64,000 nt of DNA. It comes from Octopus vulgaris (taxonomy: Eukaryota). The translations under genes were made by a program, and so were the position numbers. Shown piece by piece: positions 1 to 36,066 of this stretch (positions are counted from its first letter, which is position 1; each line of letters opens with the position of its first letter). Location of the stretch: positions 72,354,001 to 72,418,000 of the forward strand of contig OX597819.1 in assembly GCA_951406725.2 (NCBI GenBank), given 5' to 3'. The notes under the pieces were generated by a model, which searched no databases, was not told where the DNA came from, and saw only the letters and a program-made list of their open reading frames with translations.

Positions 1-66
1 ACATACATGCATACATATATACATACATACATACATACATACATACATACATACATACATACATAC

Positions 67-117
<51 letters not shown>

Positions 118-603
118 CATACATACATACATACATACATACATACATACATACATACATACATACATACATGCATACATACATACGTGAATCCAACCGA
201 TGCCAGCATGGAAAGCAGACCATTAAATGATGATGATGAGGAAGAAGAAGAAGAAGAAGAAGAAGAAGAAGAAGAAGAAGAACAGGAGGAGGAGGAAGAA
301 GAAGAAGAAGAAGAAGAAGAAGAGGAGGAGGAAGAAGAAGAAGAAGAAGAAGAAGAAGAAGAAGAAGAAGAGAAGGGGGAAGAAGAAGAAGAAGAAGAAG
401 AAGAAGAAGAGGAGGAGGAAGAAGAAGAAGAAGAGGAGGAGAAAGAAGAAGAAGAAGAAGAAGAGGAGGAAGAAGAAGAAGAAGAAGAAGAAGAAGAGGA
501 GGAGGAGGAAGAAGAAGAAGAAGAACAGGGGGAGGGGAGGGGGAAGAAGAAGAAGAAGAAGAAGAAGAAGAAGAAGAAGAAGAAGAAGAAGAAGAAGAAG
601 AAG

Positions 604-632
<29 letters not shown>
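1..632. repeat. (TACA)n followed by (GAT)n/(GAA/GAG)n microsatellites
   Basis: Directly visible; repeated at ~8555-9106. Explains the poly-E/K/R ORFs. Confidence 0.97.
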
Positions 633-634
<2 letters not shown>

Positions 635-1386
635 GGCGGAAGACGAAGAGAAGGAAGACAAAAAAGAGGAGAAAGAGAAGGAAGATGAGGAGGAGGAGGA
701 ACAGGAGAAAGTAGAACAACAACCACAACATTTTGCTGTATTTGTCTTCATTAGCTAAAAGGCAGGCCTCTAATAAATTATTTCCTCGGCAGTCATTGGA
801 AGATAAATCTTTTTTTATGTAAATAATGTTAGGAAGAAGAAGAAAACAACATAAAATAAATTAAATTGAAAGTAGGGATCACAGAAGATGAAAGATATCA
901 CAATCCCTTTTGTTATTTTTTATTTCTTCTCCCAAAATGACTTGTAAATCTATTGTCGAAAATGATAAGGCATATTTCGACTCTCACCCAACGAGAGGTC
1001 AGCAAAGGAAACAGGCGAAAGGTGAATGTAACTTGACTGTTTATTCGATTTCCCCGGTGAAAATTCTGGAAAGTAATTTAAGTTTGTAAATCAAAACATT
1101 CAGTCAAGATTAGCCGACTTCCTGTTCAGAATTCATTAAGCTCACGTTTTCTATGTTACAGAAAAAGCCACGGTTGGAAAATGAAAGAGGTAAGGAGGGA
1201 GGGTTCTGACAGTCTGGTTGTTCGCGTTGATATCGGACGAAAGGAAAAGCGTTGCCATTTTGATATTTTTCGAATGGGGAGGCATGAGTGCGAGAACGAA
1301 ATTTGCTTAGTTGGCGATGGAGGGTAAACTTGTGAACAAGGTCGATTTTTTTCATTATAATAATCATCATTATTACCATGATTGAG

Positions 1387-1615
1387 GGCGGCGAGCTGGC
1401 AGAATTGTTAGCACGCTGAGCGAAATGCCTAGCGGTATTTTGTCTGCCGTTACGTTCTGAGTTCAAATTCCGCCGAGGTCGACTTTGCCTTTCATCCTTT
1501 CGGGGTCGATTAGATAAGTACCAGTTACGCACTGGTATCGATGTAATCGACTGAAACTCTTTGTCTGTCTTTGTTTGTTCCGTCTATGTTTAGCCCCTGT
1601 GGGTAAGAAAGAAAT
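1387..1615 (+). mobile_element. tRNA-derived SINE, family A
   Basis: Head ggcggcgagctggcagaa, B-box gagttcaaattcc, core gcctttcatcctttcggggtcgat. Related copies at 1643-1770, 9861-10240, 33520-33707(-), 34225-34390, 52905-53100, 62775-62980(-). Confidence 0.85.
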
Positions 1616-2206
1616 GATTATTATTATCATGTTTGTGAAGAAGGCGGCGAGCTGGCAAAATCGTTAGCACGCCGTACAAAATGCTTCGTCCGTTTTTACG
1701 TTCTGAGTTCAAGTTCTGCCGAGGATGACTTTACCTGTCATCCTTTCAGGTTCAATAAAATAAGTATCATTTAAAAGACTTTGCCAATATTTGTGGCTAC
1801 TTCTATACAGGCAATAAAACCTGTCACTGCACCTACAATTTGTTATGCAGCATCCTGACATGTGAAGGGAAGGGAGAGGCTTTACAACAATTCCATCAGA
1901 GTTTTGAATAATTTCCTTTTCGGAGCTGTTTATTGACAGCTGTAATTGAAACTACATCGACTATAAAATTTCACTTAGGTCACTAAAACCTTTGAATGCA
2001 GTTATAATCGTCACAAAAATTCTATTTTCTTTCTTACAAAATGTAAGTCAGTTGTAAGTGGTTAGAAACACAATGACGGGTGCTGTAAGATGAGATCGCT
2101 GTCTTCTTTCGTTCTCAGTGAATTCAAATTGCTTTCACATAGGTCGTTAATGTTCTAAGCCATTGTGGTAGCAACTTCTGATGGAAACAGTGAAAAATTT
2201 TATATA

Positions 2207-2438
2207 CAGGGTGTTCAAAAATCTCTCCGCAGCGAATTTTTTTCTCCAAGATGTATTTCAAAACATGTGCAGAAGAGTCAACTTATGTACTGAAAATGAA
2301 GGACGACACTTTCAACACCTCTTATAAAGTTTTATAAAGTCTTGTAAAGTCTAATATATTCTTTTATAGTCTTATACTATCTTATAAATAGTCATTTTGC
2401 AATACAATACTGCGGAGAGAGACTTTTTGAACACCCTA
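2207..2438 (+). mobile_element. Tc1/mariner-derived MITE
   Basis: TA flanks and TIRs cagggtgttcaaaa / ttttgaacaccct. Interior encodes a transposase-like C-terminus, LQDVFQNMCRRVNLCTENEGRHFQHLL*. Other copies at 10675-10906 and 33799-34051 (reverse). Confidence 0.85.
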
Positions 2439-2594
2439 TAGTTACTCGAGACAAAGAGGTCTTTGAGGTAGTATCTATTCAAGTATTGTTTAAATAAAAA
2501 CTTTTAAAACACGTAAATGTGATTTTATGATAAACTGTTTGTTAAACCCAATAACAATACATACTTCGAAATGTGAATAACGGGAGTGGTTATA

Positions 2595-3020
2595 GGTGCA
2601 GAAGTGGCATAGTAGTTAGTAGTTTGTTTACCAGCCACATGGTTCCGGGTTCAGTCCCGCTGCGTGGCACTCTGGACATGTGTCTTCTACTGTAGCTTCG
2701 GGCCGACCAAAGCCTTGTGAGTGGATTTGGCAGATGGAAACTGAAAGAAGCCCGTCGTATATATATGTGTGTGTGTGTGCGTGTGTGTGTGTATGTGTGT
2801 ATGCTTGTGTGTATGCTTGTGTGTCTGTTTGTCTCCCACCATCAATTGAAAACTGATGTTGGTATGTTTACGTCCCCGTAGGTTAGTGGTTCAGCAAAAG
2901 AGACCGATAGAATAAGTACTAGGCTTACAAAGAATAAATCCTGGGGTGGGTCGATTTGCTCGACCAAAAGCGGTGCTCCAGCATGGCCGTAGTCAAATGA
3001 CTGAAACAAATAAAAGAATA
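2595..3020 (+). mobile_element. tRNA-derived SINE, family B (internal (TG)n, tail ccagcatggcc...tgactgaaacaa)
   Basis: A/B-box-like head (tggcatagtagtt / gggttcagtccc). Many copies: 6525-6730(-), 11063-11480, 17200-17345(-), 17375-17810, 30370-30830(-), 31615-32230(-), 34465-34955(-), 35580-35850(-), 42915-43190(-), 45625-45945, 56265-56410(-), 61560-61700. Confidence 0.85.
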
Positions 3021-4234
3021 TGAATTATAAACAATAAACTAAAATGTCATTTGAAAGACAATGTCAACATTTGTGGGTATTTCTCTACATGCAATAAAGA
3101 CTTTCGCTGCACTTGTAGCGTTAGGTAACGTCCTATGTGAGTGTACATGCATACATACACACCTGCATATGTGCGTGTGTAATGTGTGTGTATACATACA
3201 TACACACATACATACATACATACATACATACATACATACATACATACATACATACATACATACATACATACATACATACATACATACATACGTACGTACG
3301 TACGTACGTACGTACGTACAAGCATATGGATCGTAGCCATAGAGGTTGATAAAAAGTATTTGGAAAAGTATAATTTAAAAGACATTGTCAGTATTTGTGA
3401 ATATTCCTATACATGCATTGGAGGCTGCCACTACACTTGTAACCTGATAGGTAACGTCCTGACTTTAGTGTGCATATAATTATGTATATATTGCTTGAGC
3501 ATCGTTCATTCTAGCTGTCAATGTCATCTGTTAGTCTCATAATCGACCCACATTTTTATATAGACATCTGTCAAGGCACACGTGATCAGAGAAACCAACG
3601 TGTCTGTGTGTGTCTGTGTGTGTGTGTGTGTCTGTGTGAACAAGTAGAAAATACAAGAATAAATTGGAAAATGAAATTAAATTTCAATTGATATTTACAT
3701 GGACAAACATGAAGGACAAAGAAATTGAGCCTAAATTTGAACGAAGTCTCGTACTAGAGATTAGATCATGAACTAAGCTCAAGCGATTATGCACCAATGT
3801 CAGCTCATGTAATAGTGGAGTTGTATTGTGCCAGTCATCCGTGTTAAACTTTCACCCAGAACTAAAATCCTCCAGCTCGTTATTACATGTATGCAGATTA
3901 AAAAAAGGAGTGGATGCTGAAAATTGCAAAGGTGGCCCTGAAAGTCGAAGCAATAGTTAAAAGTTTTTCAGAAGGAACGTTCTAGGCAAAGGCGAGAATG
4001 TTACCATACTCGCAAAAATTCAAATGACTTCCCTTGGAAATTGAAAGTAGTATGTAAGGTTGGTTTATTATAAACCGATTTCAACCGTTCAATGCTTGAC
4101 TTCGTAATTGCTCAGAAACTGCTAAAGCTTACACTGACACAAGACTGGGAGTTTGTTGGAAAGATGTTTAGAGCCCTATTCATACTAGTCAGCAATATAC
4201 CTGTGTCTAATCGAACATAATGGCACTGAGTTTC

Positions 4235-4305
<71 letters not shown>

Positions 4306-4349
4306 GCTAGTGCATATTAAATTAGCAGCTACACCATATATGTATTCAA

Positions 4350-4459
<110 letters not shown>

Positions 4460-4651
4460 CGTTTCCTTGTTTGGTTTTATGTTTTCGTTTCTCGTTGTAT
4501 TCTACGTTTATTTGTGGTGTCCTGTACTCATATACGCATGTATATATACATATAGATGTAGGTATGTACATATATGTAGGTATGTACATATATGTAGGTA
4601 TGTACATATATGTATGTATGTATGCATATGTTTTATTTATTAAATTGTTAT

Positions 4652-4690
<39 letters not shown>

Positions 4691-4757
4691 CGGGAAGCTT
4701 TATGAAAATAGACAAAAGACGAAGGCAGGTTTACGGAAATAAACAAAATAAACATAC

Positions 4758-4790
<33 letters not shown>

Positions 4791-5217
4791 TGTATGTATA
4801 TATAAATGTATATATATATATGTCCAAGCTTGTTTTTACACATTCACCACCACAACCTCGTTTAGGCTTAGCAGCCCTTCCTATTTGTTTTCACTATTCT
4901 GTTTTTGTTGACAATTTTGACCCTCCGCAAAATCCCAAATTTTATTTAATTTGCTTTGCAGGAGCAGCTGTTTTATCGAAGGCATATCTTGTGAAATGCT
5001 CGAAACTGATGAAGGGTCGTTCTTTATGTTGTTTGTCTTGTTTTCCATTTGTGCTTTACAATGCACTCATACTTCATATTTTTTGTTGTTTATGATTTGT
5101 GACGTCCTGTGCCCACATATGCATATATATATTTATGGTCTTTCAAAATATGACTGCGTGTGTACCGTTGGCGATTTTTTCCCCTCTGTCTTCCCTTCTC
5201 TGGATCTTTCCTTCTAT

Positions 5218-5252
5218 ATTTCCGACGAAGAGCTTCGCTCGAAACGGTAAAT
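5218..5252 (+). ncRNA. Hammerhead-ribozyme-like motif (variant core CCGACGA) in a Penelope/retrozyme-like repeat
   Basis: attt-CCGACGA-a-gagc-ttc-gctc-GAAA-cggt-aaat; duplicate copy at ~13520-13554. U4C core change and an imperfect cleavage triplet. Confidence 0.5.
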
Positions 5253-5427
5253 CCTCCTTCTTTCCTTCTTTCATATGCGTCCAATAATACTATATTTGTT
5301 CCACGTCCTCGCGTTGTTGTGTTTTTTTTTTTTTGTGCTTTCTTGTTTGGATTAACTATATATATAAAGTTAATCCAAACAAGAAAACACAGAAAAAAAG
5401 AGAAAAAAAGAAAAAAACACAGCAACG

Positions 5428-5475
<48 letters not shown>

Positions 5476-5509
5476 GTATAGATGTAAATATGTTCATGTA
5501 CGTAAGTAA

Positions 5510-5556
<47 letters not shown>

Positions 5557-5727
5557 CATACGTACATATATATATATATAGGGAAAGTTTACGAAAAAAA
5601 AAAAGACGAAGGCAGGTGGTGTACAAAATAAACAGATGTGTTAGTATAACGCTCAGGAATAGAAAAAGTCTTTTACGGTTTGAGCCTACGCTCTCCTACA
5701 GAAAGGTACACAGAAAAACAAGGAGAG

Positions 5728-5773
<46 letters not shown>

Positions 5774-5869
5774 TTATATAATTAAGGATAAGATCGTTAT
5801 TTTAAATAGCGATCATATCAGGTGGCTAGCATGGGAATAAAAATCTCTTGGGTAATAATTATTGGTAAA

Positions 5870-6138
5870 ATTATAATTAAGGGTATCTAAAAGATACCAT
5901 CATGCTAGAAATAGCAGTCAAAACTTGACTCTAAAACCACATCAAATATTCATACAGCACCAGGAGAGAAGACAAAGAGACAAAATGAAGTAGCAAAAAA
6001 TAATTTTTTGCTAGTTTATTTGGTCTCTTTGTCTTCTCTCCTGGTGGTCTATGAATATTTGATGTGGTTTTAGAGTCAAGTTTTAACTGCTATCTCTAGC
6101 ATGATGGTATCTTTTAGATACCTTTGATAATAATTATA
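5870..6138. repeat. Palindrome/foldback repeat with ~130 bp arms centred at ~6002
   Basis: ggtatctaaaagataccatcatgctaga...tagcaaaaaa mirrored by tttttgcta...tctagcatgatggtatcttttagatacc. Also at ~15615-15885. Confidence 0.9.
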
Positions 6139-6165
6139 TATATATGTGTGTGTGTATGAATATGT

Positions 6166-6233
<68 letters not shown>

Positions 6234-6950
6234 CGTACCCTTATCTGATATATGTCAGACAATATTTTATCCTGTTTCATATACTCTGCTGTTATCTGAT
6301 GAGACAAACAATAGTGATATTGTTACGTTCTATGTTATCGTCGTTGTTGTTGTAGTATGTTTGTAAAATTATCCATCACACCTTATCTTATGAACGTATA
6401 CCTGTTGTAGGGAGATGCATATGTATGTATATAGATAAGTATATCTATATACGTATCTACACGTATATCTATGTGTGTGTGTGTGCGGGTATAACCTACA
6501 TATACCTTGAGTGTATGTATTGTTTTATTGTTTTACTTGTTTCAGTCATGTGACAGCGGTCATGCTGGAGCACCGCCTTTAGTCAAACAAATACACCCCA
6601 GGACTTATTCTTTGTAAGCCTAGTACTTATTCTATCGGTCTCTTTTGCCGAACGGCTAAGTTACGGAAGTGTAAACACATCAACATCGGTTGTCAGGTGA
6701 TAATGGTGGGGGACAAACACAGATACACAAACATATACTTATATTCTGTCTATATTCTGTCACGCTTATTCGTTCATTCCACTCTTCGTTCTTTCGTTTC
6801 CCCCTCTCTCACATTTCTCTGCCTTCTCTTCTTGCTCACTTTCCCTCCACTTTTCACTTCACTGTGTCCCTGTAATTTTTTCTCGCCCCTCCTTAGTTCT
6901 TCTGTTCCTCTGCTTCTACTTCTCCCTCTTCTCTTCTCACGTGACCGGCG

Positions 6951-7050
6951 NNNNNNNNNNNNNNNNNNNNNNNNNNNNNNNNNNNNNNNNNNNNNNNNNN
7001 NNNNNNNNNNNNNNNNNNNNNNNNNNNNNNNNNNNNNNNNNNNNNNNNNN
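6951..7050. other. Assembly gap (100 N)
   Basis: Run of N. Confidence 1.
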
Positions 7051-7501: not shown

Positions 7502-8385
7502 CACATTAGTGTGCAAATTAATCCGGATAGGATCAAATTTCGTGACTTTTTCATAAAATGTCGTAATCTGTAACTTAACTAATGATTTTTTTGTTGTTTT
7601 TCGTTCAGAATAGTGCAGTAGCGACACCTGGCATCTAATCAGTTGTGGCTTCGCTCCAGCATTTCCTTCAGTGTTATACTAGAGCTCGTTCTGTGTTGTT
7701 GTTCCTGCGAGCGTTCATTATTAGCTTTTAAATTCAGGGTAGCTATCACATCCAGGAAGCGTGCAAGTATTGTAGCTCTTAGAAAAAAGGGCTGGTTCTA
7801 GTACGAGACAGATGGATGAAAAAATAGATGTGGCAAAGTCAACTGTCGGTGAAATTGTGAAGAGAGCAAGAAAACACTGGCGTACAAGCAACACTACGCC
7901 GAGGAAGATATGGAAGACGACGCAAGACAACACCTTACGATGATAAAATTTTGATCAGAAATACCTTGAAGGATCCAAGGAAAACTAGTAAAACCCTTCA
8001 GAAAGATCTAGCTACAGCTGGTGTAAATATTTCGCCTTCAACTGTCCGATGAATGTTCCTTGAAGCTGGCAGACCTATCAGAAAGCCGGTACATAAACAT
8101 GTTGTTATAAAGTGAAAACATCTGCGCTAGACACGCGATCATGCTGAAGGGAAGGCAGAAGATTGGAGAAAGGTAATATATTCGGATGAATCGCATTTTG
8201 AAGTGCATAGGTACAGGTCAGTAGACAAATCAAAGGTGGGCCTCATCGACCAGGGCACATTCAACAAGCGCCAAAATACGTACCTAAGCTTTTGTTTTGG
8301 GTTTTTTTAACTGCTGAAGGTCTAGGGTGGCTTATTAATGTCGAGGGAATGATGAATGGTGATAAATACAAGTCGATCCTATATG
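7502..8385 (+). mobile_element. Decayed Tc1-like DNA transposon (5' part, transposase pseudogene)
   Basis: Translation across frameshifts and stops: ...VAKSTVGEIVKR...GRRRKTTPYDDKILIRNTLKDPRKTSKTLQKDLATAGVNISPSTVR*...EDWRKVIYSDESHFEV...LFWVFLTAEGLGWLINVEGMMNGDKYKSIL. These are Tc1 HTH, W..V..SDE and VWG-like motifs. Truncated by a SINE fragment at ~8390. Confidence 0.88.
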
Positions 8386-9077
8386 GAGTGTTTTTTCTCA
8401 AGAGCACAACTCAACGCCCGGTCTGGGAATGGAACCCACGATCTCGCAATCGTGTGTGCAACACCCCTAACCACAGAGCCAAAACGCCTTCACTCACATA
8501 CACACGCACACACACACACACACATGCACGCACGCGCGCGCGCATACACGCACATAATACATACATGCATACATATATACATACATACATACATACATAC
8601 ATACATACATACATACATACATACATACATACATACATACATACATACATACATACATACATACATACATACATACATACATACATACATACATACATAC
8701 ATACATACATACGTGAATCCAACCGATGCCAGCATGGAAAGCAGACCATTAAATGATGATGAGGAGGAAGAAGAAGAAGAAGAAGAAGAAGAAGAAGAAG
8801 AAGAAGAAGAAGAAGAAGAAGAAGAGGAGGAGGAGGAAGAAGAAGAAGAAGAAGAAGAAGAAGAGGAGGAGGAGGAAGAAGAAGAAGAAGAAGAAGAAGA
8901 AGAAGAAGAAGAAGAAGAAGAAGGGGGAAGAAGAAGAAGAAGAAGAAGAAGAGGAGGAAGAAGAAGAAGAAGAAGAAGAGGAGGAGGAAGAAGAAGAAGA
9001 AGAAGAAGAGGAGGAAGAAGAAGAAGAAGAAGAAGAAGAAGAAGAAGAAGAAGAAGAAGAAGAAGAAGAAGAAGAAG

Positions 9078-9108
<31 letters not shown>

Positions 9109-12027
9109 GGCGGAAGACGAAGAGAAGGAAGACAAAAAAGAGGAGAAAGAGAAGGAAGATGAGGAGGAGGAGGAACAGGAGAAAGTAGAACAACAACCAC
9201 AACATTTTGCTGTATTTGTCTTCATTAGCTAAAAGGCAGGCCTCTAATAAATTATTTCCTCGGCAGTCATTGGAAGATAAATCTTTTTTTATGTAAATAA
9301 TGTTAGGAAGAAGAAGAAAACAACATAAAATAAATTAAATTGAAAGTAGGGATCACAGAAGATGAAAGATATCACAATCCCTTTTGTTATTTTTTATTTC
9401 TTCTCCCAAAATGACTTGTAAATCTATTGTCGAAAATGATAAGGCATATTTCGACTCTCACCCAACGAGAGGTCAGCAAAGGAAACAGGCGAAAGGTGAA
9501 TGTAACTTGACTGTTTATTCGATTTCCCCGGTGAAAATTCTGGAAAGTAATTTAAGTTTGTAGATCAAAACATTCAGTCAAGATTAGCCGACTTCCTGTT
9601 CAGAATTCATTAAGCTCACGTTTTTTTTGTTACAGAAAAAGCCACGGTTGGAAAATGAAAGAGGTAAGGAGGGAGGGTTCTGACAGTCTGGTTGTTCGCG
9701 TTGATATCGGACGAAAGGAAAAGCGTTGCCATTTTGATATTTTTCGAATGGGGAGGCATGAGTGCGAGAACGAAATTTGCTTAGTTGGCGATGGAGGGTA
9801 AACTTGTGAACAAGGTCGATTTTTTTCATTATAATAATCATCATTATTACCATGATTGAGGGCGGCGAGCTGGCAGAATTGTTAGCACGCTGAGCGAAAT
9901 GCCTAGCGGTATTTTGTCTGCCGTTACGTTCTGAGTTCAAATTCCGCCGAGGTCGACTTTGCCTTTCATCCTTTCGGGGTCGATTAAATAAGTACCAGTT
10001 ACGCACTGGTGTCGATGTAATCGACTGAAACCCTTTTTCTGTCTTTGTTTGTCCCGTCTATGTTTAGCCCCTGTGGGTAAGAAAGAAATTATTATTATCA
10101 TGTTTGTGAAGGCGGCGAGCTGGCAAAATCGTTAGCACGCCGTACAAAATGCTTCGTCCGTTTTTATGTTCTGAGTTCAAATTCTGCCGAGGATGACTTT
10201 ACCTGTCATCCTTTCAGGTTCAATAAAATAAGTATCATTTAAAAGACTTTGCCAACATTTGTGGCTACTTCTATACAGGCAATAAAACCTGTCACTGCAC
10301 CTACAACTTGTTATGCAGCATCCTGACATGTGAAGGGAAGAGAGAGGCTTTACAACAATTCCATCAGAGTTTTGAATAATTTCCTTTTCAGAGCTGTTTA
10401 TTGACAGCTGTAATTGAAACTACATCGACTATAAAATTTCACTTAGGTCACTAAAACCTTTGAATGCAGTTATAATCGTCACAAAAATTCTATTTTCTTT
10501 CTTACAAAATGTAAGTCAGTTGTAAGTGGTTAGAAACACAATGACGGGTGCTGTAAGATGAGATCGCTGTCTTCTTTCGTTCTCAGTGAATTCAAATTGC
10601 TTTCACATAGGTCGTTAATGTTCTAAGCCATTGTGGTAGCAATTCCTGATGGAAACAGTGAAAAATTTTATATACAGGGTGTTCAAAAATCTCTCCGCAG
10701 CGAATTTTTTTCTCCAAGATGTATTTCAAAACATGTGCAGAAGAGTCAACTTATGTACTGAAAATGAAGGACGACACTTTCAACACCTCTTATAAAGTTT
10801 TATAAAGTCTTGTAAAGTCTAATATATTCTTTTATAGTCTTATACTATCTTATAAATATTCATTTTGCAATACAATACTGCGGAGAGAGACTTTTTGAAC
10901 ACACTATAGTTACTCGAGACAAAGAGGTCTTTGAGGTAGTATCTATTCAAGTATTGTTTAAATAATAACTTTTAAAACACGTAAATGTGATTTTGTGATA
11001 AACTGTTTGTTAAACCCAATAACAATACATACTTCGAAATGTGAATAACGGGAGTGGTTATAGGCGCAGAAGTGGCATAGTAGTTAGTAGTTTGTTTACC
11101 AGCCACATGGTTCCGGGTTCAGTCCCGCTGCGTGGCACTCTGGACATGTGTCTTCTACTGTAGCTTCGGGCCGACCAAAGCCTTGTGAGTGGATTTGGCA
11201 GATGGAAACTGAAAGAAGCCCGTCGTATATATATGTGTGTGTGTGTGCGTGTGTGTTTGTGTGTGTATGTGTGTATGCTTGTGTGTCTGTTTGTCTCCCA
11301 CCATCAATTGAAAACTGATGTTGGTATGTTTACGTCCCCGTAGGTTAGTGGTTCAGCAAAAGAGACCGATAGAATAAGTACTAGGCTTACAAAGAATAAA
11401 TCCTGGGGTGGGTCGATTTGCTCGACCAAAGGCGGTGCTCCACCATGGCCGTAGTCAAATGACTGAAACAAATAAAAGAATATGAATTATAAACAATAAA
11501 CTAAAATGTCATTTGAAAGACAATGTCAACATTTGTGGGTATTTCTCTACATGCAATAAAGACTTTCGCTGCACTTGTAACGTTAGGTAACGTCCTATGT
11601 GAGTGTACATGCATACATACACACCTGCATATGTGCGTGTGTAATGTGTGTGTATACATACATACACACATACATACATACATACATACATACATACATA
11701 CATACATACATACATACATACATACATACATACGTACGTACGTACGTACAAGCATATGGATCGTAGCCATAGAGGTTGAAAAAAGTATTTGGATAAGTAT
11801 AATTTAAAAGACATTGTTAGTATTTGTGAATATTCCTATACATGCATTGGAGGCTGCCACTACACGTGTAACCTGATAGGTAACGTCCTGACTTTAGTGT
11901 GCATATAATTATGTATATATTGCTTGAGCATCGTTCATTCTAGCTGTCAATGTCATCTGTTAGTCTCATAATCGACCCACATTTTTATATAGACATCTGT
12001 CAAGGCACACGTGATCAGAGAAACCAA

Positions 12028-12081
<54 letters not shown>

Positions 12082-12680
12082 CAAGTAGAAAACAACTATA
12101 AATTGGAAAATGAAATTAAATTTCAATTGATATTTACATGGACAAACATGAAGGACAAAGAAATTGAGCCTAAATTTGAACGAAGTCTCGTACTAGAGAT
12201 TAGATCATGAACTAAGCTCAAGCGATTATGAACCAATGTCAGCTCATGTAATAGTGGAGTTGTATTGTGCCAGTCATCCGTGTTAAACTTTCACCCAGAA
12301 CTAAAATCCTCCAGCTCGTTATTACATGTATGCAGATTAAAAATAGGAGTGGGTGCTGAAAATTGCAAAGGTGGCCCTGAAAGTCGAAGCAATAGTTAAA
12401 AGTTTTTGAGAAGGAACGTTCTCGGCAAAGGCGAGAATGTTACCATACTCGCAAAAATTCAAATGACTTCCCTTGGAAATTGAAAGTAGTATGTAAGGTT
12501 GGTTTATTATAAACCGATTTCAACCGTTCAATGCTTGACTTCGTAATTGCTCAGAAACTGCTAAAGCTTAAACTGACACAAGACTGGGAGTTTGTTGGAA
12601 AGATGTTTAGAGCCCTATTCATACTAGTCAGCAATATACCTGTGTCTAATCGAACATAATGGCACGGGGTTTCAGTATTA

Positions 12681-12789
<109 letters not shown>

Positions 12790-12833
12790 GCTAGTGCATA
12801 TTAAATTAGCAGCTACGCCATATATGTATTCAA

Positions 12834-12946
<113 letters not shown>

Positions 12947-13058
12947 GTCCGTTTCCTTGTTTGATTTATGTTTTCGTTTCTCGTTGTGTTCTACGTTTAT
13001 TTGTGGTGTCCTGTACTCATATATGCATGTATATATACATATAGATGTAGGTATGTAC

Positions 13059-13091
<33 letters not shown>

Positions 13092-13649
13092 TGTATGTAT
13101 ATATAAATATGTATATATATATGTCCAAGCTTGTTTTTACGCGTTCGCCACCACAACCTCGTTTAGGCTTAGCAGCCCTTCCTATTTGTTTTCACTATTC
13201 TGTTTTTGTTGACAATTTTGACCCTCCGCAAAATCCCAAATTTTATTTAATTTGCTTTGCAGGAGCAGCTGTTTTATCGAAGGCATATCTTGTGAAATGC
13301 TCGAAACTGATGAAGGGTCGTTCTTTATGTTGTTTGTCTTGTTTTCCATTTGTGCTGTTCCATGCACTCATACTTCGTATTTTTTGTTGTTTATGATTTG
13401 TGACGTCCTGTGCCCACATATGCATATATATATATTTATGGTCTTTCAAAATGTGACTGCGTGTGTACCGTTGGCGATTTTTTCCCTCTGTCTTCCCTTC
13501 TCTGGATCTTTCCTTCTATGTTTCCGACGAAGAGCTTCGCTCGAAACGGTAAACCCTCCTTTCCTTCTTTCATAAGCGTCCAATAATCCTATATTTGTTC
13601 CACGTCCTCGCGTTGTTGTGTTTTTTTTTTGTGCTTTCTTGTTTGGATT

Positions 13650-14505
13650 GGGGCTGGCCGAGTTGGAGCAAATATCAGAATTGAACAGCCGAAATTTGCT
13701 ATGATGATTCGGTGTCTGACTGAAGATTGAAGGCTTCGAATGATTTGTCTGTGTTCCGTGTTCGTCCCTTCCTGTATTTCACGTTCTTTATATATAAAAA
13801 CATTTATTCTTATATTATTGCGGCGTTACGTGCCCCCCCCCCCCCCGTTTGTTTGTCCAATTTTAAACCCTGCACGACTTCTATACACTTTGTCTTTCCT
13901 ACCCGCCATTGCTTCTTTACCAAACTATTTTGGCGCCCTCCGATTCTTCCCCCTCTTCCTCCCATCCTCCTTAATCCCTTCTTTCTCCTTTTCTCTTGGT
14001 CACTGATTCTGTCCCCTGCCTTCCACCCTCTTTGATTCCCTCTCTCTCTGTCTCTCTTTCTCTCTCTCTCCTGCAACCTGCTGCTTCTTAACCATTCTGT
14101 TGGCGATCGTATCTCGACCAACATGTGTCCCCTCTACCGAAACGGTAATTATTTCTACGCCAGCTGCTATGTTGTTGTTGTTTTTGTCTCATTTGGTCTA
14201 AAGTCGTAAGACAACCATCGTTATATTTTGTTTATCCATTACTGTTTTCAATTTCGTTTTCGTCTCTTGTATTTACATCCGTCTCGTGCGTTCACATTCC
14301 TGTCTTCTACCAAGAAATCTAATGCTTACAGCTTAGTTTTTTTCTTGGGGCTGGCCGAGTTGGAGCAAATATCAGAATTGAACAGCCGAAATTTGCTATG
14401 ATGATTCGGTGTCTGACTGAAGATTGAAGGCTTCGAATGATTTGTCTGTGTTCCGTGTTCGTCCCTTCCTGTATTTCACGTTCTTTATATATAAAAACAT
14501 TTATT

Positions 14506-14511
<6 letters not shown>
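13650..14511 (+). mobile_element. Non-coding element with 165-bp terminal direct repeat (697-bp period), pLTR/retrozyme-like
   Basis: 13650-13814 is repeated at 14347-14511. Absent from duplication copy 1. A diverged relative lies at ~16480-17115. Confidence 0.65.
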
Positions 14512-14538
<27 letters not shown>

Positions 14539-14752
14539 GTATAGATGTAAATATGTTCATGTACGTAAGTAAGTATATATATATATATACATACGTACAT
14601 ATATATATATATAGGGAAAGTTTACGAAAAAAACAAAAGACGAAGGCAGGTGGTGTACAAAATAAACAGATGTGTTAGTATAACGCTCAGGAATAGAAAA
14701 AGTCTTTTACGGTTTGAGCCTACGCTCTCCTACAGAAAGGTACACAGGAGAG

Positions 14753-14788
<36 letters not shown>

Positions 14789-14792
<4 letters not shown>

Positions 14793-15475
14793 GAAATATT
14801 AAAATAACTAAGTCTCTCTAAAAGAGAACAGCGGCAGCGTTCCCGGAAAATAATAGTTATCGCCATACTAATATGGCATTCTTATAAAAATAAGAAAAAA
14901 GCTGTCCGCTTATTAGCTCCATGAGGCCATCGCCTTAAGTTAGCTATTTGATACACAAACTGTATCCATATAACCTTCGAACAAGGGAGGTCAGTCGCTC
15001 CACACTACTTGACCGGCAGCTACAGACGCGTTTCGGGGTATTGCCCCTTTTCAATGCAGCGTAGCCAGCCAGTAGGTGTCGCTTCCGACAATCTCTGTTC
15101 GATGGTTTTATTTACCTAGTTTCGGTGGAATACATCCACTTGTTTTCAATAATAGAAATATTAAAATAACTAAGTCTCTCTAAAAGAGAACAGCGGCAGC
15201 GTTCCCGGAAAATAATAGTTATCGCCATACTAATATGGCATTCTTATAAAAATAAGAAAAAAGCTGTCCGCTTATTAGCTCCATGAGGCCATCGCCTTAA
15301 GTTAGCTTAAGTTGCCGGTCAAGTAGTGTGGAGCGACTGACCTCCCTTGTTCGAAGGTTATATGGATACAGTTTGTGTATCAAATAGCTAACTTAAGGCG
15401 ATGGCCTCATGGAGCTAATAAGCGGACAGCTTTTTTCTTATTTTTATAAGAATGCCATATTAGTATGGCGATAAC

Positions 15476-15480
<5 letters not shown>
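14789..15480 (-). mobile_element. Retrozyme/Penelope-like non-autonomous element: 362-bp unit x1.4 plus an inverted segment, inserted in (TA)n
   Basis: 14789-14945 is repeated at 15151-15307; 15313-15480 is the reverse complement of 14851-15018. (TA)n on both sides, and the matching site in copy 1 (~5730-5770) is empty. Confidence 0.8.
15019..15060 (-). ncRNA. Type I hammerhead ribozyme, U3-A8 core variant
   Basis: Minus strand: gctgca-TTGAAAA-gggg-caata-cccc-GAAA-cgcg-TC-tgtagc. Stem I 6 bp (one G-U), stem II 4 bp, palindromic stem III ACGCGU, GUC triplet. Confidence 0.8.
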
Positions 15481-15517
<37 letters not shown>

Positions 15518-15908
15518 TTATATAATTAAGGATAAGATCGTTATTTTAAATAGCGATCATATCAGGTGGCTAGCATGGGAATAAAAATCTCTTGGGTAAT
15601 GAATTATTGGTAAAATTATAATTAAGGGTATCTAAAAGATATCATCATGCTAGAAATAGCAGTCAAAACTTGACTCTAAAACCACATCAAATATTCATAC
15701 AGCACCAGGAGAGAAGACAAAGAGACAAAATAAAGTATCAAAAAATAATTTTTTGCTAGTTTATTTGGTCTCTTTGTCTTCTCTCCTGGTGGTCTATGAA
15801 TATTTGATGTGGTTTTAGAGTCAAGTTTTAACTGCTATCTCTAGCATGATGGTATCTTTTAGATACCTTTGATAATAATTATATATATGTGTGTGTGTAT
15901 GAATATGT

Positions 15909-15974
<66 letters not shown>

Positions 15975-17114
15975 CGTACCCTTATCTGATATAAGTCAGA
16001 CAATATTTTATCCTGTTTCATATACTCTGCTGTTATCTGATGAGACAAACAATAGTGATATTGTTTCGTTCTATGTTATCGTCGTTGTTGTTGTAGTATG
16101 TTTGTAAAATTATCCATCACACCTTATCTTATGAACGTATACCTGTTGTAGGGAGATGCATATGTATGTATATAGATAAGTATATCTATATACGTATCTA
16201 CACGTATATCTATGTGTGTGTGTGCGGGTATAACCTACATATACCTTGAGTGTATGTATTGTTTTATTGTTTTACTTGTTTCAGTCATGTGACAGCGGTC
16301 ATGCTGGAGCACCGCCTTTAGTCAAACAAATACACCCCAGGACTTATTCTTTGTAAGCCTAGTACTTATTCTATCGGTCTCTTTTGCCGAACGGCTAAGT
16401 TACGGAAGTGTAAACACATCAACATCGGTTGCCAGGTGATAATGGTGGGGGACAAACACAGATACACAAACATATACCTATATTCTGTCTATATTCTGTC
16501 ACGCTTATTCGTTCATTCCACTCTTCGTTCTTTCGTTTCCCCCTCTCTCACATTTCTCTGCCTTCTCTTCTTGTTCACTTTCCCTCCACTTTTCACTTCA
16601 CTGTGTCCCTGTAATTTTTTCTCGCCCCTCCTTAGTTCTTCTGTTCCTCTGCTTCTACTTCTCCCTCTTCTCTTCTCACGTGACCGGCGTTCGGCCAAGC
16701 TTTCTTTCTTGGTCTGGTCGTTGTCCGTGCAATATCGATATTCCTCATTGTGTTTGTGAAATCTTGTATCCCTACCGTAAGGCTTAATTTCCACACACGC
16801 CAGCTTAATTTAATTCGTCCTTAGTCGAAAGAGATCTGTTGTTATATCCTGTTTATTTTATGGTATTTGTGTAACATTGTCTGTTTTTTTCCGTCCTTGT
16901 TTTTGTATATATTCGCTGCTTTCTTCCAAGGAATCTAATGCTCTTAGCTTAGTTTTTCCTTGGGGCCGGCCAGATTGGAGCAATCTCAAGTATAATCAGC
17001 CGAAATTGCGAAGTTAATCTGGTACTTGACTAAGGAAAGAACACTTCAAATGACCCGTCCTTGGTTTCTTTGTATCGTCTGCCTGGATGTTTTGCGATCC
17101 CATTTTGTATTTTT

Positions 17115-17200
<86 letters not shown>

Positions 17201-17535
17201 CGACGGGCTTCTTTCAGTTTCCGTCTACTAAATCTACTCACAAAGCCTTGATCAACCTGAGGGTATAGCAGAAGATACTTACCCAAGGAGACTGAAACCT
17301 AAACCATGTGGTTGAAACGCAAGATTCTTATCACACAGCCACATGATGGGTGTGTAGAATATATGCATATATAGTGGTTGTGTGGTAAGTAGCTTGCTTA
17401 CCAACCACATGGTTCCGGGTTCAGACCCACTGCGTGACACCTTAGCCGAGTGTCTTCTACTATAGCTTTGGGCCGACCAAAGCCTTGTGAGAGGATCTGG
17501 TAGACGGAAACTGAAAGAGGCCCGTCATATATATG

Positions 17536-21911: not shown

Positions 21912-21913
<2 letters not shown>

Positions 21914-22541
21914 TATAAATAAATAAATAAAATATCAGAGTTTTACTTAGTTTTAGAGACCGATAAATCGTGTAAATCCATATTTATTCTAAAGATATGC
22001 CTATGCATGTTCGAAAGAACGTATTTCTAGTATATCAACTAATTATTTATTCGTATGAGCTACTTTTCATATATTTATGATCAGTCAAAGTAAATATATA
22101 TAAATTATATATAATGACAATATATAATAACGCCTCTCGTTTCTTATTTATATTTTATTATCTCTTTATCTAAGAAATGATATAGGTTATAATTATCGTA
22201 GATCTGTGTTTTTGTTTATTTTATTTACGGAGTTCTCCCTTCGATAAACTACGTAAATGAGGACCATAATTTGTTAGTTACTTTGAATAATTTTTATATC
22301 AATACCAATAAATAAATGAGAGGAGTTATTATATATTGCCATTACATATAATTTATATATATTTACTTTGACTGATCATAAATATATGAAAAGTAGCACA
22401 TACGAATAAATAATTAGTTGATATACTAGAAATACGTTCTTTCGAACATGTATAGGCATATTTATAGAATAAATATGGATTTACATGATTTATCGGTCTC
22501 TAAAACTAAGTAAAATTCTGATTATTTATTATTTATATATT
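21912..22541. repeat. Palindrome with ~235 bp arms and ~160 bp spacer
   Basis: 21912-22150 is the reverse complement of 22308-22541 (ttttacttagttttagagaccgataaatc / gatttatcggtctctaaaactaagtaaaa). Confidence 0.92.
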
Positions 22542-23238: not shown

Positions 23239-25862
23239 TAGTATATTTTTATATCGTGCTTTCACTTCACTACCGAGCGCAGCTCTCTGTGCCTTGGGTA
23301 TGTGCTGTGATTTGTTGTGATGCTCTGATGGTTATTGTATGGAAAGTGTTCTGCGTAAGATGTGTGCAGTGCCTAGTAGTGCAATTTTCTGTATGTTATA
23401 TGTGTTTGTAAGTCCTGGTGTTTTTGTTATGTATTTGTCTGAGTATTTTTTATCATGTCTAATGCACCTATTATGATAGGAATTGTTTCTGTTTTTAGAT
23501 TCCACATTCTGGTTACCTTTATTTCCAGGTCTTTGTATTTTGAAAGTTTCTCCATTTCTTTTAGAGACACGTTGTCATCCGCTGGTATTGATACATCAAT
23601 TAGAAAGCATTTTTTTCCTTCATGATCTCTGACAACTATATCTGGTCTGTTGGCCTTAATTTCTCTATCTGTGTGTATTGGCATATCCCAGAGTATGGTT
23701 GCTTTCTCGTTTTCTGTGACCTTTTCTGGTGTGTGCCTATACCATCTTTTTTCTGTTGTTATTCCATAATGTTGGCATAGTTTCCAGTGTATATAGGTCC
23801 CAACTCTGTCGTGTCTGTGAATATATTCCTTCTTAGCCAGGACTGGGCAGCCAGAGATAATATGATTTATTGTTTCTTGTCCATCTCCACATATTCTGCA
23901 GTTACTTGTTATATTTCTTTTCATTACATGTTTTTGGTAATTTCTGGTGGGGAGGCTTTGGTCTTGTGCTGCAATTAAAAATCCTTCTGTCTCTGCTTTG
24001 AGTCCTGAACTTTTCAACCATTGTTAGGATTTTTCTTTGTCTATTTCTTTTGCATTTAGTTTAGTCCAGTATTTGCCATGAAGGGGCTTTCCTTGCCATC
24101 GTTTTATCATGGCTCGTTGCTGTTCTATTTTTAGTTAGGATTTAGTTAGGATTTGTTTTATAGCTTTTGTTGTTTCTTCATCTTCTTCTTCATATTTGTT
24201 AGGTGGTATGATTTCTTGTTTGTATTTATCAGCTTCCTTAAATACTGAGAACAGTTTTTTGTTTTGCTCGTGTTTTGCCGCTATTTGTATCAGTTTTCCT
24301 TCCTTCTGAAGTAGATATTTTGCAGTCCTATGGTGGTTATTTTATAGTAGTTTTCCAGCTGTATAAGGCCTCAACCACCATCTATACGTTGTATATATAG
24401 TCTTTCTATGTCAGATTTTGGGTGATGCATCCTAGATCCTGTCATTATTTTTCTTGTTTTCCTATCTATTTTGGTCAGTTCATTTAGTGTCCAGTTAAGG
24501 ATATTGTAGCTGTAACTTATAACTGGGACGGCTAAAGTGTTGATACCTATTATCTTGTTTTTAGCATTGAGCTCTGTTTTCAGTATTGATCTAACTCGTC
24601 TATAATATTCTTTTTTTACTTCCTCTTTCATTTGTGTGTGTTGTGTCTTATCTAATTTATGGATTCCTAAGTATTTGTAAGTTTGGCTTTGGTCTAATTC
24701 TTTTATTTCATTGGTTTTTATCTAGTGTGATGTTGCTACTCTTAATTAGTTTTCCCCTTTTCAGGGTTACTTTGGCGCATTTCTCTAATCCAAATTTCAT
24801 ATCTATTTCTTTGGTAAATCCATGAACTGTCTTTAGTAGTGTTTCCAGCTGTTTGTCATTTGTTGTGTATAGTTTTAGGTAATCCATATATGATCTTTTT
24901 GCCGTAACATTTATATCCGCATCCAGTTCTGTTTAGCATATCCGATAGAGGTGACAGTGCCAAGCAGAAAAGGAGTGGAGAGAGCGTATCTCCCTGGAAT
25001 ATTCCTCTTCTAATGGAGATGGCTTTGGTTTTCACAAGTCCCTCTTTTGTTTGGAGCTGTAGCACTGTTTGCAGTTTATTCATAGAGTGTTCTATGTACT
25101 TTATAATTGTTGGTGCAACTTTGTTCATGACTAGTGTTTCGAGAATCCATGTGTGGGGGATGCTATCAAACGCCTTTTTGTAGTCGATCCAGGCCATACT
25201 GAGGCCTTTCTTCTTTCTGTGGCTGTCTTCAGTTATGGCTTTATTGATCATTAGTTGATCTTTACAGCCATATGAGCCTTTGCGGCATCCTTTCTGCTCT
25301 TCTGGAAACAGGTTGTTTTTGTCTAGGTGCTTGTTCAATCTTTGCGATATTACTGCAGTAAATGCTTTGTACATTGTAGGGAGACAGGTTATAGGTCTGT
25401 AGTTTTCTGGTTTTGCTGTCTCATTTGATTTAGGAATTAAGATGGTTTTCCCCTTCGTGAGCCATTCAGACATTGTCTCTGGCTCTGCTAGTATGCTGTT
25501 AAAGTTTTCAGCCAGCTTTTTGTGCATTCCTGTTAGATATTTCAACCAGAAGTTGGGGATCTTGTCATTCCCAGGTGCCTTCCAGTTGCTTAGTCTTTGC
25601 AGTGCCTGGGTGACCTCTTCAGTTGTTATGGGGGTCCAAAGTTGCTCAGATGCTGAGTTTGTTGTTTTAATACTCCTTTTTTTGGGGTTGCTCGTTCGCC
25701 GACCATATTTCTCTCCAGAATTCTTCCACTTCTGCCGTTGGTGCTGCAGTGATTTCTATTTTATTTTTGCCAAGTTCTTGGTAGAACTTTTTGGGGTTGG
25801 AGTTGAACTGTTTGTTTTGTTCAAAGAAACGTTGGCGTTTCTCGTACCGGCGGATCCTTTGT
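23236..25862 (-). mobile_element. 5'-truncated, frameshifted Dong/R4-clade non-LTR retrotransposon (RT + CCHC + restriction-like endonuclease)
   Basis: RT motifs ENYRPITCLPTMYK, EQKGCRKGSYGCKDQL, WIDYKKAFDSIPH, GIFQGDTLSPLLF. Also AAQDQ, CRICG..ETINHIISGC, RHD and RPDIVV..CFLID..K..KY. Flanked by (TAA)n on both sides. Confidence 0.93.
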
Positions 25863-27990: not shown

Positions 27991-28175
27991 AAGGAAGTAA
28001 TTTTATTCTCAAACGCAGGATAATGCTAACAATATAACATGAACAGGATAAGCTATCCATATTTTGCAGAAAAATCGGTCGGCGACAGACTTTCCTGCAA
28101 AATATGAATAGCGTATCTTGTTTGTTGATCTATTATTAGCATTATTCTGCGTTTGAGAATAAAATTATTTCCTTA
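27991..28175. repeat. Palindrome with ~88 bp arms between (TA)n tracts
   Basis: aattttattctcaaacgcag / ctgcgtttgagaataaaatt, centre ~28082. Confidence 0.85.
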
Positions 28176-28847: not shown

Positions 28848-29981
28848 GTTAGTTAGTTAGTTAATTTGGCTCAAAAGCAAATAGCAAGGCCATGTAGGGG
28901 GACATGGAGTTAAGTACAGGGTGGTGTTCATGTAAAGAGTTCAGGCCACTTGAGGTCCAGGGAGGCTTTGAACAAAGCGGTCGTCGGCATCTTCACCATC
29001 TCGTCTGGCAGCTTGTTCCACGGATCCGCAACCCGGACGGAGAAAGCTCCTCTCCTTCGATTGAGATGAAATCGTCGCAGGTAGAGCTTTTCGGAATGAC
29101 CCCGCAGCCGACGCTCTGGAGCAGGAGTGAAGAACAGCTCTTTCGAGAGGTTACACTTTCCGCTTATAATGTTATGGGCGAGAATGAGATCACCACGGCG
29201 GCGGCGTTTTTCAAGAGAATAAAGGTCGAGCGTCCTCAGCCTTTCTTCGTAGGACAAATTTTTGAGACCATGAACCATGCGGGTAGCCAGCTTCTGGACT
29301 CTTTCGAAATGCTGTATGTCTTTGAGGAGATAAGGAGAAGAGGCTTGAATCCCATACTCCAATATGGGTCTCACCAGCGTGACATAGAGTGGTAGGAATA
29401 TGGCTGCTGTGAGCATTCCGAATGACCGTCGAATCAAGAACAGAATTCCGCGTGCTTTGTTGGCAGCATGGACGCACTGGGCCGAAGGCGAAAAGGAGGA
29501 ATCCACCAAGATACCCAGGTCCTTTACCTGATCGGTCCTCTCCAGCAGCAGACGACCCGGCTCGAAATCAAGTTGAGTTGCAGGAGTAGAGCCGACAGGC
29601 AGATGACAGCACTTTGACACGTTCAGACACAGGTCCCAATCGTTAGACCACTTCCAAATTTGGTGGAGGCATCGACGAAGATCCTCTATATTACCGCGAG
29701 GAGCGACTAGTTTGATATCGTCGGCAAATAGAAGGGTGTGTTGCGTGAGGTCGTCGGGCATGTCATTTATGAAGACTAAGAACAACAAGGGCCCAAGCAC
29801 TGAACCTTGAGGCACGCCACTGCTCGCACTGGAGACGTCGGACCGCGAACCATTAACTTGGACTTGGAAGGAGCGATCTGAGAGGAAGGCACCAACCCAT
29901 CGTATAATATCCGGATGGAAACTATATGCTTGAAGCTTGACAAGTAATAGGCGGCGGTTTACCGAGTCAAAAGCTTTGGCT
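28848..29981 (-). mobile_element. 5'-truncated CR1-like LINE (RT C-terminal half, open frame)
   Basis: AKAFDSV...GVPQGSVLGPLLF...LFADDIKL...KDLGILVD...LVRPILEY...ERVQKLATRMV..LSYEERL...RGH, with a (TAAC)n tail at ~28848-28864. Confidence 0.92.
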
Positions 29982-30024: not shown

Positions 30025-30325
30025 TATAAAGGATCGTGGGTAAGACCAATACAATGCAAGGTAAATCACAAAAAACAAATATATGAATTAACGTAAACTT
30101 ACCTTGTATCGAACATTTCAGGGTTATGACCCCATTTTCTAGAAATCGACGAATGTTGCCGATGTGCGTGTGTGTGAACGCTCATCGGCAACATTCGTTT
30201 ATTTTCTTGAAAATGGGGTCATAACCCCGAAATATTGAATACAAGGTAAGTCTACATTTTTGTTTTCTTGTGATTTACCTTGCATTTACTTCGCATTGTT
30301 TTGGCCTTACCCACGATCTTTTATA
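30025..30325. repeat. Palindromic element (~130 bp arms) with a degenerate hammerhead-like motif in each arm
   Basis: ggatcgtgggtaag / cttacccacgatc and gaatgttgccgatg / catcggcaacattc. Right arm: ttc-TTGAAAA-tgggg-tcataa-cccc-GAAA-tatt-gaa (30204-30239). Confidence 0.75.
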
Positions 30326-35062: not shown

Positions 35063-35386
35063 ATTATTTACATTTTTCGGATATTTGTCTTCATCTTGTT
35101 TGTTAACACGTTTCGACTGATATACCCTCCAGCCTTCATTAGGTGTCTTGGGGAAATTTTGAACCTAGTTTCTTATTCGTAAGGTATTTTTCAATGTTAT
35201 TACTCAGGTCACTGCCTGGAATAGAAAAATATCTTAGGAATGAGAACCCAGGTTCGAAATTTCCCCAAGACACCTGATGAAGGCTGGAGGGTATATCAGT
35301 CGAAACGTTGTGTTAACAACAAACAAGATGAGGACAAATATCCATCAAATGTAAATAATTCCTCATCTCTTAAATATAGAACTGTA
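35063..35386. mobile_element. Palindromic hammerhead-bearing element, copy 1
   Basis: Inverted arms. Right arm: gacac-CTGATGA-a-ggctg..cagtc-GAAA-cgtt-gtgtt (35269-35314), with unique 3' tail cctcatctcttaaatatagaactgta. Confidence 0.85.
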
Positions 35387-36066
35387 TTATCTATATATTC
35401 CTTCCTATAATCTACTGCGTATTACTCTAAGTACCTCTCTCTTGATTACTAACTTTGAGACAATTAGTAAGGAAGAAATGAAGTGAAGTTTGTTGCTGCC
35501 CAGTTAGCTGATGTCATCAGGGGGCGCTGGTGCACTTGCCTTCTGCAATCGATCACCCACTTGTTTTTAAAAGAGGGTATTTTTAATCAAATGATTCAAC
35601 TAATATTTTCTTTTTAAGTCTGGTTACTTATTCTATAAGTCTTTTGCCAAACTGCTAAGTTATGGGAGATGTAAACACACCAACACCAGTTGGGAGGACA
35701 GACTTCTTTCAGTTTCCACTTACCAAATCCACTCACAGGACTTTGGTTGGCCCAAGGCTATAGAAGACACCTGCCCAGGGTTCCACACAGTGGGACTGAA
35801 CCCAGAGCCATGTGGTTTGGAAACAAGCTTCTTACCACACAGTCACACCTGCACTTAATACAATATTTCACTAAATTTCTTATTTTAAAAATTAATTGAA
35901 AGAAGAGCATTTCAAGAGCAATATAAGAAAACAGTTAGACATACCAAAGAATTAAGGGGAGTGGTGCTAACAGATTGTCATAACCATTCAGACTAGAACT
36001 TGGTACCCTTCCTGTCTACAGACAACGACTGATCTACAAGGCATTTAAAGAGAGCAGTCACATTAA

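Follow-up and report, generated by a model that had tools for sequence, protein, structure and literature searches.

The insertion at 14787-15481 is probably a recent copy of a high-copy, ORF-less non-LTR retrozyme that was likely mobilised by a PLE. It was analysed within a 64-kb window (i.e., the whole stretch of DNA under study). Both the U3-A8 core of its hammerhead and its tandem-plus-inverted architecture are already published. The insertion adds one more animal retrozyme family and one more insertion with a Penelope footprint, and it provides genomic support for a mobilisation route that papers propose without showing the mechanism. A probably heterozygous and very young copy, together with many public holders of the family, makes a workable test substrate.

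The coordinates of the insertion and its surroundings are given in Table 1. The long arm (14787-15307, 521 nt) comprises 1.44 units of 362 nt, with 15149-15307 identical to 14787-14945 at 159 of 159 positions (period 362), just as the initial annotation had read it, namely as a 362-bp unit repeated about 1.4 times with a near-identical overlap. Beyond a 5-nt filler (15308-15312), the segment 15313-15481 (169 nt) is the exact reverse complement of 14850-15018, a match that can be extended to 15021 at the cost of one mismatch, and all three overlapping segments of the insertion are mutually identical. The earlier placement of the start of the inverted copy at 15018, 6 nt 3' of the predicted cut, is exact, this base being the seventh of the 3' product. 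The insertion shows no LTR-type ends, the longest stop-to-stop frame in the unit is 55 aa (trimer, either strand), and a BLAST search of the unit against the 64-kb window found no second copy. The whole unit folds with z = -7.1, and 64% of it is paired when it is folded as a circle. A TSD is unreadable within the (TA)n, which measures 41 nt in the empty site and 35+36 nt in the filled one. In the accessible sections of PMC7229834, metazoan non-LTR retrozymes are described as tandem elements of 150-450 bp with a GC content below 50% and type I hammerheads, for which PLEs are proposed as carriers. Their sizes are 350-390 bp in mussel and 330/350 bp in axolotl, the latter with HHR_Amex1 (Cervera & de la Pena 2020, PMC7229834). 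Elements of this class have no LTR, PBS or PPT, their TSD, where one exists, exceeds 4 bp, and their RNA occurs as linear and circular monomers. Likewise, the present unit is 362 nt long, tandem-forming, non-coding and self-paired, with 41.7% GC, a type I hammerhead and many copies. The earlier view of a retrozyme-like element is thus supported by an ORF-less, high-copy 362-nt unit with a type I hammerhead motif.

Table 1. Features of the insertion and of its empty counterpart, in window coordinates
Feature	Position	Strand	Remarks
Empty (TA)n site, 41 nt	5730..5770	.	uninterrupted; in matching block, which probably represents the second haplotype
Left (TA)n target tract, 35 nt	14755..14789	.	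overlaps element end; exact boundary ambiguous by 2-3 nt
Full 362-nt monomer	14787..15148	-	41.7% GC; RNA sense is minus
63-nt "tail"	14787..14849	-	on long arm, missing from inverted arm; 14787 (=15149), next to (TA)n, recurs as an end of family copies
Type I hammerhead core domain	15019..15060	-	core UUGAAAA; U3 15054, A8 15049; predicted cut 15025/15024
Second hammerhead-like motif	15105..15155	-	UUGAAAA core 15149-15143, 5-bp hairpin, GAAA 15123-15120; straddles fixed 3' end
Second unit, 5'-truncated, 159 nt	15149..15307	-	identical to 14787-14945; without hammerhead
Inversion junction	15303..15313	+	5-nt microhomology and locally templated filler
Inverted 5'-truncated arm	15313..15481	+	exact copy, monomer positions 7-175 from the cut; stops short of hammerhead
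Right (TA)n tract, 36 nt	15479..15514	.

Every core position of the hammerhead motif apart from the U3-A8 pair is canonical, with C17 (15025) as H17, as expected of a type I core. In the MFE fold, helix II (15047-15035) has 4 bp and a CAAUA loop, and it is followed by GAAA at 15034-15031 and by the palindromic ACGCGU helix III at 15031-15026. Helix I has 6 bp and continues past an internal loop to about 15011/15070 in a long hairpin. The layout is that of three helices with the open end in helix I, among which helix III (one pair and a palindromic tetraloop) cannot close in the monomer and only forms between two copies. The internal loop in helix I and the CAAUA loop 2 would be candidate loop 1-loop 2 partners, and we take the loops of this hammerhead to resemble canonical hammerhead loops. 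An unconstrained co-fold of two 60-nt copies yielded a double hammerhead (-55.7 versus 2 x -24.8 kcal/mol), and the 76-nt hammerhead region folds with z = -3.9. A strict hammerhead descriptor matched twice in the window, at the 15060-15019 motif and at a C3-G8 motif at +35274, the expectation being 0.017 per 64 kb (60 Markov simulations). Three Rfam searches, two of them at E up to 10, returned no hammerhead match, which we take as insensitivity of the model because the C3-G8 min-HHRs of the window were also missed at the gathering score. The 14787-15481 locus contains one complete hammerhead, where Li et al. look for two consecutive ones in an active copy, and helix I is misfolded in the MFE of its read-through transcript. 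On these predictions, this locus is probably a dead-end copy whose single hammerhead would not release a monomer circle alone.

The UUGAAAA core with a compensatory U3-A8 pair, as initially proposed, holds up: none of the 26 variant rows at >=3% in four mapped runs touches a conserved core base, 15054 and 15049 included, and natural covariation of the two positions is published. Random decay of the core was rejected, since no core variant reached 3% in the mapped runs. The notion that U3-A8 is an unpublished core was also dropped, as it already appears in PMC3088659 and PMC4209133. The accessible parts of the former report natural U3-A8 covariation in hammerheads, with earlier in vitro activity, and those of the latter report U3-A8 in ~1,300 hammerhead motifs of S. 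mansoni PLEs. Since U3-A8 is invariant in the mapped copies, the covariation is deduced from the canonical core and is unseen within the family; we infer that U3-A8 is characteristic of the family and preserves the 3-8 pair. The only two variants inside the hammerhead, at 15035 and 15037, turn a G-C into a G-U pair in helix II. One diverged contig of run X7 has two small indels within the hammerhead. All three loose-end consensuses that reach the core retain U3, and two show A8, one of which has lost U4. With respect to structure, 12 of the 26 variants are unpaired, seven keep a pair and seven break one, numbers too few and too linked for inference. Depth is 6-9 thousand at 15063-15075 in two of the four runs versus several hundred thousand elsewhere, and diverged copies, possibly with other 3-8 pairs, therefore appear to have been left out of the mapping.

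The second hammerhead-like motif, which the initial annotation does not mention, is probably not catalytic, judging from its sequence, because it lacks the G10.1-C11.1 pair, needs a bulge in helix I and has a variable A15.1 (15120 T>C, 8-25% of depth in three runs). Such a motif arises in 6 of 3000 shuffles under a descriptor that was written after the motif was seen. A sibling family in public contigs aligns over 15107-15190 only (four pieces), and there are hints that this segment, together with the tail, may form a recognition module.

The family is widespread in public sequencing data. Twenty of the 24 listed runs contain 0.94-1.00 of the sampled words of the unit; the list covers 12 studies and nine organism labels, with five rows possibly from the source organism, and none of the listed holder runs is on record as RNA. 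Contigs of four runs were mapped on the permuted unit 14946-15307, and 2542, 4300, 1187 and 22 of them were placed. The 1187-4300 contigs in each of the three DNA-sized runs point to a very high copy number. Among the 32 listed pieces (of 8208), 6 span the unit junction 15148/15149 by the 31-letter rule; two are largely whole (records 3 and 19), and the other four come from a sibling ~85% alike. Therefore, the monomer closes on itself in the family and not only at this locus. Loose ends in (TA)n at 15149 occur in 33, 13 and 2 contigs (three of four runs; among 24 of 276 loose-end rows). One contig has a (TA)n loose end at 15218 (=14856), near the end of the short arm at 14850. The ends of the family are recurrent and not freely permuted. 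Free permutation was rejected, and with it the circularly permuted ends that had been envisaged, since the other copies examined share the fixed end at 14787/15149 abutting (TA)n. No common ORF-like continuation was found in the 24 of 276 loose-end rows shown. Depth crosses the cut without a clear step (1.12M to 1.00M in X2, 167k to 146k in X13, 319k to 282k in X12), contig depth not being equal to copy number. In run X7, which is RNA by guess, two contigs without differences cover all 362 positions and one of them spans the cut site; DNA-sized runs with the same organism label are heterogeneous, and the X7 variant may be an expressed lineage. Pattern scans for relatives in viral, genome and metagenome contig collections returned 0 loci.

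The flanks of the insertion recur at 5580-5713 and 5771-6950, around an uninterrupted (TA)n, and this empty site between matching flanks supports the proposed youth of the insertion. Specifically, block 19-6950 matches 8552-16689, with mismatches of 0.7-1.1% in the two long stretches counted (8/1174, 27/2489) and 4/141 in the short left flank of the empty site, and it ends exactly at the sole N gap of the window (6951-7050, 100 N). Paired, almost identical blocks that end at a scaffold gap commonly indicate that two haplotypes have been scaffolded one after the other. Because the first block stops exactly at the N gap, 19-6950 and 8552-16689 are, from their sequence, probably two haplotypes placed in tandem (i.e., a false duplication), and therefore the insertion is probably heterozygous and younger than previously assumed. 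Given the N gap, we do not regard a true segmental duplication as the most likely origin of the empty site. As for the statement that the element is absent from the other duplicate, the empty (TA)n is real, but the "duplicate" is probably the other haplotype.

Other repeats occur in and around these blocks. A 273-bp imperfect palindrome (91%) is found in both (15611-15883 and 5866-6138) and is therefore older than the retrozyme insertion; further palindromic repeats lie at 17198-17530, 21912-22540, 27992-28173, 30029-30321 and 36166-36293. A 697-bp unit with identical terminal repeats (168 bp) ending in (TA)n (13648-14512) is present in the second block only, the first block having a short inverted repeat at 5335-5390 instead, and there is a segment of 73-75% similarity at 16911-17053. 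A hammerhead-like sequence at 13524-13552 (+) has a CCGACGA core (U4C), a 4-bp helix II, GAAA and a weak helix I. A pentapeptide-repeat frame lies at 39530-40093, and 7850-8400 looks by eye like a degraded Tc1/mariner transposase.

The insertion consists of a partial tandem with an adjacent inverted 5'-truncated copy, which is the architecture of PLEs, and three insertions of another hammerhead-bearing family in the window show the same footprint. In the accessible text of PMC8557442, the PLE footprint comprises a partial tandem, an inverted 5'-truncated copy, a tail and a microsatellite bias. According to the available portion of PMC11167929, a purified PLE protein can nick AT-rich DNA on both strands and extend them, and it begins reverse transcription at two sites in the RNA, which set the limits of the tail. 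The footprint match and this two-site RT start lead us to read the two arms as cDNAs that would begin at monomer positions 238 and 175. In the proposed course of events, transcripts of tandem master copies would have the sense of the present minus strand, the hammerhead would cut as a dimer, and 362-nt monomers may circularise. A PLE RT/endonuclease would write the unit into a TA microsatellite, with the two cut DNA strands serving as primers at two likely fixed RNA sites 63 nt apart. The long-arm cDNA would start at position 238 and extend over 1.44 units, crossing a hammerhead that was uncut or had been religated, and the short-arm cDNA would start at position 175 and run 169 nt. A 5-nt microhomology would then bring the two 5'-truncated ends together in head-to-head orientation, along with a short templated filler. 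The one-sided extension is 63 nt long (the PLE tail being 30-40 bp), and the second fixed end is given by the short arm and one contig. No RT plus GIY-YIG ORF is present in the insertion, Pfam searches of 31 of the 97 long window frames gave no GIY-YIG, and no PLE ORF sharing the ends of the insertion was found within the 64-kb window. The only RT matches in these frames are fragments (RVT_1, zf-RVT; Pfam) at 23430-25755 (-) and 28928-29980 (-), with RT itself at 24859-25755 and 28928-29977, and at least the second of them we take to be CR1/L2-like.

The three insertions of the other family (35063-35396, 40385-40770 and 43920-44336) contain min-HHR-type hammerheads (C3-G8) and have a fixed short end and a ~35-nt tail. 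The one at 43920-44336 is flanked by a short direct repeat. Both arms of the 40385 copy show U3-G8 and the loss of G12, a possible intermediate of the 3-8 swap. Text resembling a tRNA was noticed by eye at ~44088-44150, where ARAGORN found nothing, possibly a PLE-carried SINE.

At 15303-15307, the long arm ends with 5 nt that read as the reverse complement of 15018-15022 (chance 0.14-0.43%), which is the sole site of the unit complementary to the end of the long arm apart from that end itself, and 15308-15313 duplicates 15298-15303 (chance about 0.17%). The chance that one of the two breakpoints falls 0-6 nt 3' of the cut is 3.8%, or 7.1% within 6 nt on either side, for a feature that was chosen after the fact and in a single event. 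The junction microhomology extends to position 3, two bases from the cut, which would favour run-off at the cut. However, with a single matching 5-nt site, the microhomology is by itself enough to fix the position of the junction. An RT that stalled at the foot of helix I would lead to the same breakpoint, and the proximity of the inversion break to the predicted cut may be a coincidence. The long arm reads through the hammerhead uncut. In the head-to-head insertions of the other family, six of six arms run at least 84 nt past the predicted cut. Likewise, PMC11167929 reports, in its available portion, that cleavage by the PAc hammerhead is dispensable for insertion in vitro and that no reads end at its cut. 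Two other opposite-strand joints of the 362-nt family were found in public contigs, one of them with an end at position 16, which would again speak for run-off, the other three ends being at 88, 103 and 129; the inversion joint of this locus, which sits at the edge of the mapped stretch, is absent from the seven joint rows. Of the rolling copy of a cut or circular RNA proposed in the initial annotation, the more-than-unit-length copying stands, but a link between inversion and cut is no more than a possibility, given a chance of 4-7% and no stop at the cut in any of the six arms of the other family. In a stronger version, which we consider unlikely, the short arm would be a run-off cDNA that ended at the 5'-OH of a cleaved RNA, recording cleavage in vivo, and the vestigial hammerhead would be a priming signal common to siblings. 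If this were true, one PLE enzyme dimer would have used an uncut or circular RNA as the template for one strand and a cleaved RNA for the other. A genome-wide pile-up of short arms at the cut would then tell whether PLE-associated hammerheads cut in vivo, and would show which template was used (i.e., cut, uncut or circular RNA).

A single rolling cDNA could instead have folded back, with its 3' end annealed to 15018-15022, or switched template, but we doubt this; in the equally doubtful fold-back version, the inverted arm would result from second-strand synthesis that endonuclease resolution terminated 63 nt before the start was reached. The complementarity of the last 5 nt of the long arm to one site besides itself and the identity of all three overlapping segments agree with a fold-back, the junction microhomology serves it equally well, and the accessible text of PMC8557442 suggests that the tail arises from EN-mediated resolution. 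However, PMC11167929, as far as its available portion goes, maps the tail to two RT start sites, with both strands primed. A fold-back also leaves the nearness to the cut a coincidence, since the long cDNA crosses an uncut hammerhead, and the identity of the arms is a weak argument, as ~15% of random copies would match (a rough product of X2 variant frequencies). We regard it as highly improbable that the inverted arm arose after insertion at the DNA level, by replication fold-back or end-joining repair, or that it is an assembly chimera. Microhomology with templated filler, as observed at the junction, also marks polymerase-theta-type repair, and the joint is unseen in the mapped contigs and lies in a region that is probably mis-scaffolded. 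Yet the outer ends are both flanked directly by the (TA)n of an otherwise intact empty site, the flanks are neither lost nor inverted, the three insertions of the other family have the same head-to-head form with fixed ends, and the 362-nt family has its two other opposite-strand joints in public contigs.

It is also very unlikely, in our view, that the unit is the pseudo-LTR of an autonomous PLE and the insertion its 5'-truncated debris rather than an independently cycling retrozyme. The footprint is the same as that of PLE debris, S. mansoni PLE hammerheads have U3-A8 and occur as dual motifs, 100-700 bp from each other on opposite strands (PMC4209133, accessible parts), and Xenopus retrozymes and pLTRs are homologous according to the available text of bioRxiv 10.64898/2026.07.22.740005. 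On the other hand, public contigs join the monomer to itself across 15148/15149, no common ORF-like continuation appears in the 24 loose-end rows shown, the longest frame has 55 aa, and helix I (6 bp) and helix II (4 bp) match the canonical retrozyme type and not the min-HHR type of PMC4209133.

Read as a PLE-mobilised retrozyme, the insertion shares with the retrozymes in the accessible sections of PMC7229834 a size below 450 bp, a GC content below 50% and a non-coding, tandem-forming and highly self-paired monomer. Its hammerhead is also like theirs in having a 6-bp helix I, a 4-bp helix II, a one-pair helix III with a palindromic tetraloop and a predicted dimer, and the double-hammerhead co-fold resembles the arrangement given there for axolotl HHR_Amex1. 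Unlike those retrozymes, which have C3-G8, the present one has U3-A8, an extra degenerate motif and one hammerhead at the locus, and its inverted arm and two-ended PLE footprint are not described for retrozymes in the main-text sections of PMC7229834. The same compensatory 3-8 swap is seen in the Cercyon PLE min-HHRs of S. mansoni (PMC4209133) and in Perreault 2011 (PMC3088659), both in their accessible parts, but here it is found in a canonical-size type I motif of an ORF-less monomer, whereas that of Cercyon is in a min-HHR of a pLTR. In a literature coverage with few subscription papers, we found no published account of this family, nor of breakpoints located at a hammerhead cut.

With EN+ PLEs (Penelope/Poseidon, Neptune and Naiad; accessible text of PMC8557442 and PMC11167929), the insertion has in common the partial tandem, the inverted 5'-truncated copy and the tail at one end, as well as a (TA)n or AT-rich target and a hammerhead in the repeat. 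It differs from them in lacking an RT/GIY-YIG ORF and in its tail of 63 nt versus the published 30-40 bp. Animal retrozymes have been proposed to be non-autonomous PLE derivatives by Li, Clavereau & Pollet (2026, bioRxiv 10.64898/2026.07.22.740005), in whose available text eight of nine predicted Xenopus retrozyme dimers did not cleave. The structure of the present insertion fits the same proposed relationship. On the one hand, the evidence in the accessible part of that study is co-occurrence and pLTR homology in vertebrates; on the other hand, the evidence here is the footprint of an insertion.
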